Shown piece by piece: positions 11,358 through 13,833 of a stretch of DNA of 64,000 nucleotides. The stretch is from positions 64,001 through 128,000 of the forward strand of contig CAZPQW010000001.1 in the NCBI GenBank assembly GCA_964588985.1. The letters are read 5' to 3'. A program made the translations under genes and the position numbers. The DNA is from an uncultured Solirubrobacteraceae bacterium. Lineage in GTDB: Bacteria > Actinomycetota > Thermoleophilia > Solirubrobacterales > Solirubrobacteraceae. How positions within the stretch are numbered: the stretch's first letter is position 1; every line of letters begins with the position of its first letter. The notes beneath the pieces are model-generated. The model did not search any database, was not told where the DNA came from, and was given only the letters and a program-made list of their open reading frames with translations.

Positions 11358-11499
11358 GTCTACAGGATAGGACGAGTCGCTATATCCGGCCTCCCGGACG
11401 GCCCTCCGGGTCCATCAGGAGCAAACGACGTTGCGGATCGCGTCGGCTGCCCGCCTACGAGCCTCCTTGCCAGTGGGCTCCAGCAGCTCTGCCGAGAGT

Positions 11500-11578
11500 C
11501 GATCCACGGCGTCGTCTCGGTTTGCAACGCGTCCCGAACTCCCCGTTTTTCGCTGGTAGGAGGTTGTTGTTCGAACTT
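11500..11578. repeat. att-like repeat B1
   Basis: tctcggtttgcaacgcgtcccgaactcccc-gttttt...gttgttcgaactt, matches 13753..13833. Confidence 0.9.
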
Positions 11579-11657
11579 GCTGGGTCTTCGCCGCATCGGC
11601 GGGGCCGCGTCTGGTGGCGGGCGTGACCGGGCATCCAAGGAGCCAGCGCGGGTTGAC

Positions 11658-12416
11658 TCAGGCGGCGTGAGGACGAGCTTCCGTGGTGCGCTTATCGATT
11701 CCGTCAAGGAGCGCACTGGTGGCCTCGACCGATCGCGCCAGTCGCGGTAGCTGAGGGGCAGAAATGATCGTTGCGCGGAGGTCCGCTGCCAGCGTCTTGT
11801 AGCCGAGGTCTTCGAGCTGGGCTGGAAGCTCGGGTCTTGAGAGCGGGAAGCTGTGGTCCGCCAAGAGGCGCCATCGCGCGGTGAGGGTGAGCGCTGTCCT
11901 TACCTGCTCAACCGCGGCTTCGTGATCGCCGCTTGCCACCATCGCGCGAGCGATGCTGAGAGACTTCTGCGCTTGCTGGTGCTTGCGAAGCGGATCTGGC
12001 CACAGCTCCTGTTCTGCGATGAGGCTTTTGCTCTCTTGAACGATGCCCGTGTCGAATACCACGCGGCCGAAGCGCAGGGACCAGTGGGTGAAATCATCTC
12101 CATCTAGTAGTCGGGCACGTAGCCGCGCAGGCGAGACGACGTGGACATCAATCTCGTCAGGTAGACAATCGAGCGCGATGGGCGTGCCGATCAGGTGATA
12201 GTCGAGGTCGCTGACCGGCGTGCGGGCTCCGCGCGCCGTCGATCCGGTAAGGAGCAGGGCGTGCGCCCCCCCTTCGCGAGCACGCGACTCGACCATATCG
12301 TGAGCCACGCGTAGCTTCGCCGGCAGCAGTTCTTGGATGCGGTCGGCCTCATTGCTGAGCCGCATCCTCCAGAGGATTTCGTCGAGCGCGCGCTGTCTTT
12401 CGAGCTCGCTACTCAC
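11658..12416 (-). CDS. Minimal nucleotidyltransferase (MNT) with helical HEPN-like C-terminus
   Basis: LLTGSTARGARTPVSDLDY and IDVHV Pol-beta motifs. Confidence 0.75.
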   Translation of the reverse strand: MSSELERQRALDEILWRMRLSNEADRIQELLPAKLRVAHDMVESRAREGGAHALLLTGSTARGARTPVSDLDYHLIGTPIALDCLPDEIDVHVVSPARLRARLLDGDDFTHWSLRFGRVVFDTGIVQESKSLIAEQELWPDPLRKHQQAQKSLSIARAMVASGDHEAAVEQVRTALTLTARWRLLADHSFPLSRPELPAQLEDLGYKTLAADLRATIISAPQLPRLARSVEATSALLDGIDKRTTEARPHAA

Positions 12417-12786
12417 GATGAGCCTCGGCTAGATCGACTGCCGACTCGACTTCCGAAGCCAGGTCCTCGAGTGACTGCTCCCCGAAATCCGGGTCCTCTC
12501 CGTCATATACGGCCTCCTTGCGAGCCACGTTGAGCGTACGCAAGGCTGGTGCGAAGTTCGTCGTGATGGCGCCCTGGGCGTAAAGCTGTTCGGCGGCCTC
12601 AGCCTTCCGCCAGTGATTGGGCTCGATCGAAACGCCATGCTGTTCGGCGAGTGCGGCGATCGCTGCCTCGAGCGAGACAAAGAGCCAGGTGACGGCGTCT
12701 GTGTAGTCCTGAGACGCTACGGCCGGCAAGGCGCGGTCTAGGTGCTCCCGAGCGAGCTGTTGCTTGGTCTTTGGCGACACGATCAC
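12409..12786 (-). CDS. HEPN-domain protein
   Basis: AREHLDRA, YTDAVTWLFVSLEAAI, H, LNVARKEAVY; overlaps the MNT gene. Confidence 0.7.
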   Translation of the reverse strand: MIVSPKTKQQLAREHLDRALPAVASQDYTDAVTWLFVSLEAAIAALAEQHGVSIEPNHWRKAEAAEQLYAQGAITTNFAPALRTLNVARKEAVYDGEDPDFGEQSLEDLASEVESAVDLAEAHRE

Positions 12787-12850
12787 ATGCTACGCCCCAA
12801 GGTTGATGGGGTCGTCGATCCAACGTCATCTGGCCTCTATGCATTGGGGT

Positions 12851-12940
12851 CAAATCGCTCCTCGTGAAGCCTCCGGATCAGAGGCCACGGAGATTTCGAG
12901 AGTCTTCCCGCCATCCCCGTGTTTGTTTGAAGTTCGAACT
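12851..12940. repeat. att-like repeat A1
   Basis: caaatcgctcctc...ggccacggagatttcgagagtcttcccgccatccccgt then gtttgtttgaagttcgaact; 7 substitutions and one fewer C versus A3. Confidence 0.9.
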
Positions 12941-12961
12941 GCGTGAAGCCAAGCGTTCGAG

Positions 12962-13414
12962 TCAGCCGGGGACGTCTACGGCGATGTTAGTGCGGCGAGT
13001 CAGGCCGACAAGCAGGTTGATGTCGTCTGGATCGCCGGTGACGATGGTCACCGCGCAGATCCGGCTGCGTTCCTCGGCCATCGCCACGACCTGTGCATCG
13101 GTCGGCGAAATGTCGTGGCGCGAGAGCGAAAGTGCCTCAGTCCGCAGTACGCCCGCGCGGGTAGCGGCCTCGACGGTCAGTGGCGCGTAGATGTCGTCCT
13201 CTGCGCCGATGGCCTTGATCAGGCGATCGACGAGTGCATCGGAGCGTCGTTGGCCGGATCGCACCTCGGTAAGCACGGGGATCGGGATCAGGAGCGCTCC
13301 ATCGATGCGCAGTTTGAGCACTTCGATATACGCAACGAGCAGGTCCCGGTTCGCGGCCAGCGCGCTGACGCCGCCACTGTCGAGCAGGAAGTCGCGGCGA
13401 GGCCGGTTGATCAC
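12962..13414 (-). CDS. PIN-domain (VapC-like) toxin
   Basis: FLLDSG, VLTEV, ISPTDAQVVAMA, IVTGDPDD. Confidence 0.85.
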   Translation of the reverse strand: MINRPRRDFLLDSGGVSALAANRDLLVAYIEVLKLRIDGALLIPIPVLTEVRSGQRRSDALVDRLIKAIGAEDDIYAPLTVEAATRAGVLRTEALSLSRHDISPTDAQVVAMAEERSRICAVTIVTGDPDDINLLVGLTRRTNIAVDVPG

Positions 13415-13593
13415 TCAGGCCAAGTGTCCGCGCGGCGCTGGAGCTCGGGCAGGTGCTTCGAGCCGTCGGCCCCCTCGGCGACGAGTTCGTCGCGCAACTG
13501 CTGGAGGCGAGCACGCTGGGCGTCACGGAGCTTCGGATCGTCCGCAGGCTGCGGCCCGACGTGCATTGCGATGGCGGCCTCCATTGCATTCAT
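13411..13593 (-). CDS. Putative antitoxin of the PIN toxin
   Basis: Small ORF with ATGA overlap onto the PIN gene; LQQLRDELVAEG. Confidence 0.6.
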   Translation of the reverse strand: MNAMEAAIAMHVGPQPADDPKLRDAQRARLQQLRDELVAEGADGSKHLPELQRRADTWPE

Positions 13594-13752
13594 TGTATCC
13601 AGAGTCTCGGCAGTCGGATCGGCGTTCTTGACTGACGCACAAGGCTGGCAGGCGGTCACGGAGCAGTGAGTTGGAGGTCTGCTTGACGGATCGCGGCGAC
13701 CGCTTGACGTCGCGCCGCCCGCCCGGCGGGCTTCATCAACTCCTCAAGTAGC

Positions 13753-13833
13753 CGATCCAGGGCGGCCTCTCGGTTTGCAACGCGTCCCGAACTCCCCCCG
13801 TTTTCCGCCGGTACGAGGTCGTTGTTCGAACTT
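13753..13833. repeat. att-like repeat B2
   Basis: Matches B1; C-run of 6 instead of 4. Confidence 0.9.

Follow-up and report, generated by a model that had tools for sequence, protein, structure and literature searches.

What does a conserved peptide signify when its reading frame recurs within one locus and has no start codon? The question is raised by two minus-strand frames, B1 and B2, in a 64,000-nt stretch of DNA (hereafter the window) from an uncultured Solirubrobacteraceae bacterium (contig CAZPQW010000001.1, positions 64,001 to 128,000), where they lie in an island that extends from a tRNA-Ser(GCT) gene to a TetR gene. Our analysis indicates, with a probability of about 0.8, that the conserved arms containing these frames (type B), together with a second kind (type A), are the P half of the attachment site (attP) used by a clade of large serine recombinases (LSRs), whose elements insert just past the 3' ends of tRNA genes. 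The evidence, all of it observed directly, comprises the anatomy of the sites, the boundaries of the cassettes, a coding-type constraint, fusions of LSRs to tails, and junctions at which an LSR gene reads into an antisense tRNA. Below, the letters L, G and P label loci, genomes and representatives of protein clusters, respectively.

Start-less frames within probable attachment sites

Between 11.4 and 15.95 kb, the window contains five composite sites, each consisting, in plus-strand order, of a variable arm, the sequence CCCCG/TTTT and a common segment of ~35 nt ending GTTCGAAC. The arms are of type A (A1 to A3) or type B (B1 and B2); in A1 the common segment is shortened, and in A3 a diverged flank takes its place. 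Minus-strand translation reproduced both B peptides quoted in an earlier note on this DNA, together with their stops, and thus its description of gap-free, start-less frames: no open reading frame (ORF) of at least 40 aa with an ATG, GTG or TTG start is listed in either frame, the frames close upstream after 38 codons (B1) and 21 codons (B2), and direct reading of the DNA places in-frame start-type codons solely within the tails (one GTG in B1, TTG-ATG in B2). The underlying direct DNA repeat covers 111 nt at 75% identity (repeat family D8; E 4.6e-25 in a search of the window's own genome), and the peptides are 55% identical without gaps over a row of 44 residues.

To place these frames in a broader context, the B1 peptide was searched in six frames against 401 genomes of the order, yielding, outside the window, 12 places at E<=1e-3 distributed over eight genomes, all of them open frames of 47-178 aa. 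Eleven places were inspected, namely ten of these 12 and a weaker match (L050). The resulting alignment of 13 B rows, from up to 10 assemblies, combines nine places with B1, B2, L035 and L036, and omits G421:C6, a third copy in G139, L050 (noise) and G035, whose open frame ends at the start of the match and has a TGA listed inside it. Its consensus reads SGR.AN....LDRLLE.LMEP.GREARRRAAEAIR. The common-segment pattern, in turn, retrieved nine distinct sites at eight places in metagenome-assembled genomes of Solirubrobacterales (six with A arms, two with B arms and one of a third type). At the family level, a DNA search with the A2 site matched in only one of 200 other genomes. The B-arm loci outside the window are arrays of toxin-antitoxin and defence modules, with no recombinase within ~2 kb. 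The window stretch itself is present in 22 rhizosphere or soil metagenome runs, and no RNA dataset is listed as holding it.

Across the 13 B copies, differences at codon positions 1/2/3 amount to 0.31/0.29/0.54, with a ratio of nonsynonymous to synonymous differences (pN/pS) of 0.54 and no stops; the shifted frames give ratios above 1.2, with stops, and in the antisense frame whose wobble position coincides the ratio is 0.6, with four stops. Because nine of the 13 copies had been found by peptide similarity, the test was redone on the four B arms found through neighbouring DNA, whose distal codons 13-39 show differences of 0.33/0.27/0.57, a pS of 0.63 and a pN of 0.29, with pN exceeding pS in both shifted frames. 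This coding-type change bears out the earlier claim that the similarity goes beyond a plain DNA repeat. The opening 30 nt of the A arms, compared across 13 DNA-anchored copies, are invariant (differences of 0.03-0.04 at every codon position), and codons 11-22 display a pS of 0.64, a pN of 0.12 and position differences of 0.14/0.15/0.50; one stop lies in frame, the natural terminator of the A2 tail, versus 12 and 6 in the shifted frames. The proximal invariance and the distal excess of pS over pN imply that each arm is maintained as DNA in its proximal part and as protein in its distal part.

The geometry of the sites points to the position of the crossover. In 10 of 12 genus relatives, tRNA-Ser(GCT) ends at its discriminator G and is followed by T-rich unrelated DNA, while in the window and one relative it is followed by CCA and a P'-like segment; the CCA at 6116-6118 was probably supplied by the element. 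Two joining boundaries are visible in the window, between the tRNA and the LSR 3' end at 6115/6116 and between the A3 arm and unrelated flanking DNA at 15897, forming hybrid attL and attR sites. As similarity switches there, we place the crossover directly after the tRNA discriminator and, in arrays, at CCCCG/TTTT. At the tRNA junction and at the array junctions alike, a codon is split behind its first base, so that the LSR remnant of the window, if joined to B1, would read QM-A-GSSGR in frame, as the LSR fragment P0095 does. From the TetR side, a search for an unoccupied attB found four relatives with unrelated DNA, and no tRNA-Ser, upstream of TetR; unoccupied tRNA-Ser(GCT) flanks are visible in relatives from the tRNA side, and B' flanks are not conserved. 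A 14-nt junction probe for the far-end P arms of intact elements was ambiguous, with one weak candidate in L087. The arrangement in G166 is a small one: behind tRNA-Ser(TGA) come a common-like segment, a single AbrB/PIN cassette, an A arm and the chromosome. At another tRNA-Ser(GCT), in G554 (L138), CCA and a P'-like segment of ~27 nt lead almost directly into an arm of the third type (C), which suggests an 'empty' attL-attR pair with hardly any cargo between the two.

A TCGAA motif occurs at +16 in the tRNA-Ser GCT and TGA half-sites and at +21 in canonical A arms (A1, G166). In a second LSR lineage the corresponding positions are +19 at the tRNA junctions (L079, L083) and +24 in a P arm (the L081/G382 tail). 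The offset in both lineages is the one described for serine integrases, whose distal zinc-ribbon motif is shifted outward by 5 bp in attP relative to attB (PMC3783163). No equally clean TCGAA-like motif was found in the B arm. Since the motif belongs to the DNA of the site, GR[LV][SA][KN] is mostly its translation; the A and B peptides do share GR[LV][SA][KN], as in the earlier note, but it is largely a DNA motif (TCGAA in the A arms, a mimic of the tRNA T-loop) rather than independent peptide conservation.

Recombinase genes that end in tails or in tRNA

That the B frames are read from a gene across the att site, as previously proposed, agrees with our results, and the gene is a recombinase: B tails end the LSR fragments P0095 and P0057. 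P0057 displays Recombinase and Zn_ribbon_recom domains, and P0095 a Zn_ribbon_recom match below the Pfam cut-off. Beside its tRNA-Ser(GCT), the window contains a remnant of an LSR C-terminus. It has no Pfam match; as far as a shared ...QM-A, its identity is 55% with P0095 and 52% with P0153. Past this point P0095 continues into GSSGQFAN..., and the remnant into AERAGFEP..., which is antisense tRNA-Ser(GCT). A word-based search with the A3 frame revealed A tails on three further LSR C-terminal fragments, P0153 (window-like), P0158 (similar to the G377 enzyme) and P0154 (a third type). All five tail-fusion proteins are single-member clusters, 'hypothetical' or unnamed. These fusions do not bear out the earlier suggestion that at least two integrase lineages have used the site, given that the window-like LSR lineage by itself occurs with three endings: the B tail in P0095, the A tail in P0153, and antisense tRNA in the window and L085. 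Nor need arm type denote an integrase lineage, A tails being found on three different LSR C-terminal types. The observed LSR-tail pairings need not be cognate, because tandem arrays fuse an LSR gene to the arm of a neighbour; the B1 tail would be cognate to the LSR remnant found at the opposite end of its element.

The window remnant retrieved seven further places in the order, in six other genomes (7 of the 401 genomes, counting the window's own). Six of these seven loci have an LSR frame that continues into an opposite-strand tRNA gene (Asp-gtc, Ser-gga, Leu-gag, Lys-ttt twice and Leu-cag), with a TGA breaking one of the LSR genes; at the seventh, in G382, the frame ends in a non-tRNA, P-type tail with a G-Q-L-S-N motif, fused to ~100 more residues. 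An opposite-strand tRNA at the end of the frame is also found in 13 of 20 metagenome relatives of P0095, the remainder comprising two with a G(L/F)EPP signature and no tRNA call, and five that are truncated or unclear. Among these loci, L085 holds an intact 577-aa window-like LSR at tRNA-Ser(gct), and the tRNA targets of the clade, in genomic and metagenome loci together, amount to nine isoacceptors. Immediately ahead of the junction, each LSR-tRNA case has an ATG or CTG/TTG codon, which overlaps the CCA or discriminator of the tRNA in antisense. All six intact LSRs tested (L085, L077, L081, L086, L089 and L100) display the Resolvase, Recombinase and zinc-ribbon Pfam domains, above the cut-off or, for the zinc ribbon, nearly so. 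The only other LSR in the window's assembly, on contig C17, has neither a tRNA nor a tail at its end.

Beyond the order, a B profile searched against 1.84 billion representative proteins matched 146 at E<=1e-3, of which 40 passed E<=1e-10, the matches being clusters at 50% identity. The C-terminus lies no more than 15 residues beyond the motif in 123 of the 146, and the length ahead of the motif ranges from 0 to more than 150 residues. A Pfam scan of 34 of the longer matches left 30 without a family; besides P0057 and P0095, it gave one HEPN and one DUF4379 protein, both representing read-through from upstream cassette genes. The tails themselves, A and B, have no match in Pfam or PDB. The proposed reading would explain why gene callers attach start-less 'orphan' peptides of this class, which for the B motif alone fill 146 clusters, to upstream frames unrelated to them. 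In one further protein, P0001, an N-terminal cytochrome bd fragment (PF01654) is fused to an A tail, which suggests that in some metagenome the arm lies in or beside a truncated cydA-like gene.

According to the mechanism that we propose, the crossover would fall within the 3'-terminal part of the recombinase gene: the ~12 codons immediately ahead of it would constitute the P' half-site, that is, the 35-nt common segment, and the codons past it would constitute the P half-site together with a further 15-30 codons, giving a conserved tail of ~22 aa (A) or ~40 aa (B). In an excised circle, or where the arm of another element lies downstream in a tandem array, the enzyme would carry an A or B tail; integrated beside a tRNA gene, it would end in residues encoded by the antisense tRNA, and each jump into or out of the tRNA gene would swap its tail. 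Applied to the window, the mechanism would give a decayed element running from tRNA-Ser(GCT) and the LSR remnant through its cargo to the B1 arm, then four toxin-antitoxin cassettes with two attP halves each and no recombinase, and A3 as the outer attR. B1 and B2 would be untranslated relics or cis sites in this genome, start-less because the gene reading into them is absent or truncated in the window.

More tentatively, the tail might report or control the state of the element, with an A or B tail making the enzyme competent for one direction of recombination and an antisense-tRNA tail leaving it silenced or reversed, and a serine-recombinase cassette market might operate at tRNA genes; we consider this extension possible and rather doubtful. 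If it were true, the clade would possess a built-in directionality switch that needs no separate factor, and tRNA genes would host an integron-like, serine-recombinase-driven exchange of recombinase-less toxin-antitoxin and defence cassettes. Sequences resembling a helix-turn-helix (HTH) occur beside P arms in two cases: the tail of the G382 LSR (L081, about 299.8-301.9 kb) continues in frame into an HTH-like extension of ~100 residues, and in the window a 74-aa ORF (11133-11357, weak HARE-HTH match, E 7e-4) lies 58 nt beyond the stop of the B1 tail. A small DNA-binding protein beside the P arm may be a regular part of these elements, possibly a directionality factor.

Several observations weigh against attributing the arms to the recombinase clade. 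No full-length LSR with an A or B tail is present among the database and genome matches, as would be expected if that form exists only in excised circles; the sole full-length LSR with a non-tRNA tail, L081 (G382:C1), carries a fourth tail type with its HTH-like extension. The fusion proteins lack the catalytic domain in P0095 (374 aa) and P0057 (422 aa) and are fragments of 150-184 aa in the case of the A tails, so that all five look like decayed genes, as in the window; in P0057, moreover, a low-complexity stretch, possibly out of frame, separates the LSR body from the tail. The window's assembly, 96% complete, has no intact LSR of the clade, and hence nothing there can translate or use B1 and B2. 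The earlier claim that both B frames keep the same register relative to the core holds for B1, whose tail is in frame with the 35-nt common segment upstream, and fails for B2, whose tail is out of frame with it because of two extra C at the junction. As for the coding constraint, ascertainment by peptide similarity lowers pN in nine of the 13 B copies, and a pN/pS of ~0.5 is only moderately low. Finally, contigs of four metagenome runs contained no cassette-skipping joints or circles; the contigs break at the repeated sites.

Cassettes, island anatomy and alternative readings

Blocks delimited by crossover points recur beside different neighbours when the array is compared by blastn with the fetched loci. 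Cassette 1 is 86% identical over 1399 nt to L037 (matching window 11532-12925) and 82% identical to L033, and its homology with both starts at 11532-11543. Cassette 2 with its B arm (12919-13797) is 79.5% identical over 888 nt to the L071/L043 block in G139. The segment 13785-14422, containing cassette 3, is 91% identical to positions 53-687 of L037, where it stands behind an A arm instead of B2, and the cargo of cassette 4 (15056-15776) is 81% identical to positions 10039-10758 of L071 in G139, where it is accompanied by a B arm instead of an A arm. The same HEPN/nucleotidyltransferase cargo thus occurs with either arm, showing that arms and cargo can re-assort. Because the common segment matches the final dozen codons of the LSR gene, we read the cassettes as recombinase-less derivatives that keep only two attP halves and would be mobilised in trans. 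The identity of the cargo varies in strength: the HEPN/nucleotidyltransferase pair is solid, the nucleotidyltransferase-like and PIN pairs are weak, and the plus-strand pair of cassette 3, which may be BrnT/BrnA-like, has no Pfam match, nor does the third ORF of that cassette.

The features of the island are collected in Table 1. An Rfam scan of 5000-18000 at E<=1 reported two tRNAs only and nothing at the att sites. A sixth site of this kind lies on another contig (L004, G000:C24:12570-12620), between the end of an insertion sequence (IS) integrase-core gene and a RelE/ParE-like ORF, and has an A-like arm with a decayed tail frame.

Table 1. Features of the island between tRNA-Ser(GCT) and the TetR gene, in window coordinates.
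Feature	Position	Strand	Basis and remarks
tRNA-Ser(GCT)	6027-6118	plus	ARAGORN, Rfam; 3' end supplies the B half-site (attL, tRNA joined to P')
LSR C-terminal remnant	6130-6485	minus	118 codons; reads ...KPKQM-A directly into antisense tRNA
Decayed LSR element cargo	6486-11414		Pfam, composition; lower G+C, 0.55-0.62
Methyltransferase-like	7050-9254	plus	Pfam; in decayed LSR element
ORF	9289-9957	minus	Decayed LSR element cargo
GDSL hydrolase	10026-10706	minus	Pfam; decayed LSR element cargo
Small HTH-like ORF	11133-11357	minus	Decayed LSR element cargo
B1 arm, P half of attP	11415-11545	minus	Type B arm, 11434-11545 within the composite site; tail codons 11418-11543, stop 11415-11417
Common segment (P' half), start of cassette 1	11546-11580		Homologous to last ~12 LSR codons before crossover
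Cassette 1 cargo	11658-12786	minus	252-aa nucleotidyltransferase-like ORF (weak DUF294 match) and 125-aa partner
A1 arm	12852-12919	minus	A tail MAGRLSKSPWPLIRRLHEERF..; then shortened P' segment 12920-12945
Cassette 2 cargo	12962-13659	minus	PIN-like 150-aa ORF (weak Pfam match) and 82-aa upstream ORF
B2 arm, P half of attP	13656-13800	minus	Type B arm, 13687-13800 within the composite site; tail codons 13659-13797, stop 13656-13658; two extra C at junction
P' segment and cassette 3	13801-14837		P' segment 13801-13835; ORFs 13875-14174 (+), 14171-14404 (+), 14547-14837 (-)
A2 arm and P' segment	14837-14940	minus	Arm 14837-14905; P' segment 14906-14940
Cassette 4 cargo	14992-15745	minus	HEPN 14992-15438 (Pfam E 2e-14); nucleotidyltransferase 15425-15745 (E 6e-11)
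A3 arm and diverged flank	15829-15945	minus	Arm 15829-15897; attR (P joined to B'), outer end of island
TetR gene	15950-16564		Adjoins A3 attR

Elsewhere in the window, a pair of paralogous plus-strand genes of ~600-700 aa (3-1829 and 3335-5440), 3608 nt apart and 71-84% identical in DNA, corresponds to repeat families D3-D7, D12 and D20; a gene with an Arylsulfotran_2 domain at a G139 locus may hint at their identity. A repeat with a period of 141 nt (22977-24357; D1, D2), in eight to nine copies within a coding region, has a beta-propeller-type look, and an 18-nt tandem repeat in three overlapping copies lies at 58446-58517 (D17).

Four other accounts of the arms have to be weighed against these data. 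The arms could be purely DNA, namely untranslated attP binding sites for the recombinase or an accessory protein, with the open frame as a by-product. Such an account is in keeping with the first ~30 nt of the A arms, which resemble a binding site in being invariant at all codon positions, with the shared GR.S(K/N) motif that maps to TCGAA, and with a window that offers neither a start codon nor an upstream gene. Beyond the proximal 30 nt, however, third-position change dominates in A and B arms alike, pS is well above pN, stops are confined to the other frames, the conserved tails exceed the 40-50 bp given for serine-integrase att sites (PMC3783163), and the frames are continuous with LSR genes in P0095, P0153, P0158 and P0154; we therefore regard a DNA-only role as unlikely. 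Stand-alone small genes heading cassette operons, such as leader peptides or small regulators, are a less probable source still, even though the arms lie mostly upstream of cassette genes on the same strand, the A arms open with ATG, and 34 of the 146 database matches have 10 or fewer residues ahead of the motif. The B arms have no start at their conserved N-terminal edge, where the upstream sequence is unrelated between copies, and cassettes are inverted relative to the arm in cassette 3 of the window, L032 and L038; furthermore, the proteins with a C-terminal motif differ widely in length, and the motif also continues LSR genes.

Displaced 3' ends of a host target gene, each element bringing a replacement end, would account for conserved ends of coding type that are start-less and arranged in tandem. 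A six-frame scan of the window's genome with a hidden Markov model, however, did not reveal any long gene ending in an A or B tail, the 12 places in the order genomes are all short open frames, and the target is a tRNA gene, which together render this origin highly improbable. The ~1-kb cassettes, rich in toxin-antitoxin modules and shuffled between genomes, also recall an integron-like array, in which a tyrosine integron integrase would act on attC-type sites in their folded, single-stranded form. The sites, however, fold no better than shuffled sequences (z from -0.65 to +2.32 for both strands of A2, B1 and B2) and are homologous to the 3' ends of LSR genes, and none of the 13 PF00589 matches in the genome lies within the window, the nearest being ~27 kb before it, so that an integron is scarcely credible here.

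Comparison with known systems

Having weighed these accounts, we compare the preferred reading, in which the arms are attP halves of a tRNA-targeting LSR clade, with systems already described. Like the serine integrases of the phiC31, Bxb1 and A118/LI type, the intact relatives combine Resolvase, Recombinase and zinc-ribbon domains, and the sites share the short two-half-site att organisation, the hybrid attL and attR and a distal motif 5 bp further out in attP (PMC3783163). Unlike those enzymes, the clade targets the 3' ends of tRNA genes, its crossover would lie in its own reading frame so that the last 25-45 residues vary with the recombination state, and its tails are conserved peptide families without a Pfam or PDB match. 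A 2014 database paper described serine-family integrases as not known to target tRNA genes (PMC4383910), and excerpts from resource papers of 2025 and 2026 are silent on tRNA targeting by serine integrases (PMC12424338, PMC12884075). A close architectural parallel is described for the 'suicidal' tyrosine integrases of the SSV (Sulfolobus spindle-shaped virus) type in archaeal viruses and plasmids, in which the site lies inside the integrase frame, tRNA genes are targeted and integration alters the gene (PMC7253208). The LSR frames likewise cross the junction into antisense tRNA or tails; the SSV-type enzymes, however, are tyrosine recombinases of archaea whose gene is split into two inactive parts, whereas here a bacterial serine recombinase would exchange its tail and keep its body whole.

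In the integration-dependent immunity of some mycobacteriophages, attP lies in the 3' end of the repressor gene, and integration by a tyrosine integrase alters the C-terminal tail of the repressor. That system resembles ours in that integration changes the C-terminal tail of a protein, and differs in that the gene affected is a repressor gene and in that neither the A nor the B tail sequence indicates a degradation-tag function. A full-text literature search, with subscription journals and supplements outside its scope, uncovered neither a serine integrase whose attP lies in its own frame, nor tRNA targeting by a serine integrase, nor a tail of such an enzyme swapped by recombination, nor cassette arrays of this kind. 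Serine integrases are prized as tools for their short sites and strictly controlled direction. A clade with tRNA-end targets, attP in its own coding sequence and an exchangeable tail would therefore offer a new way of controlling direction or activity, as well as new landing sites that are conserved and ubiquitous.

At the level of the array, the locus is similar to integrons and integrase-less attC clusters in its small, often toxin-antitoxin cassettes, the conserved sites between them and their shuffled order, while it differs in having no attC hairpins and no IntI, its sites being serine-integrase attP halves and its arrays beginning at a tRNA gene. Toxin-antitoxin cassette arrays of Solirubrobacterales would thus be organised by serine-integrase half-sites and not by integron attC sites. 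Tandem accretion of the CIME (cis-mobilisable element) type assembles recombinase-less units with att halves beside a recombinase-bearing element at one tRNA site. The island shares this tandem arrangement of recombinase-less att-half units at a tRNA site, and is distinguished by units of ~0.9-1.4 kb, each with one toxin-antitoxin or defence module, in arrays of four or more.

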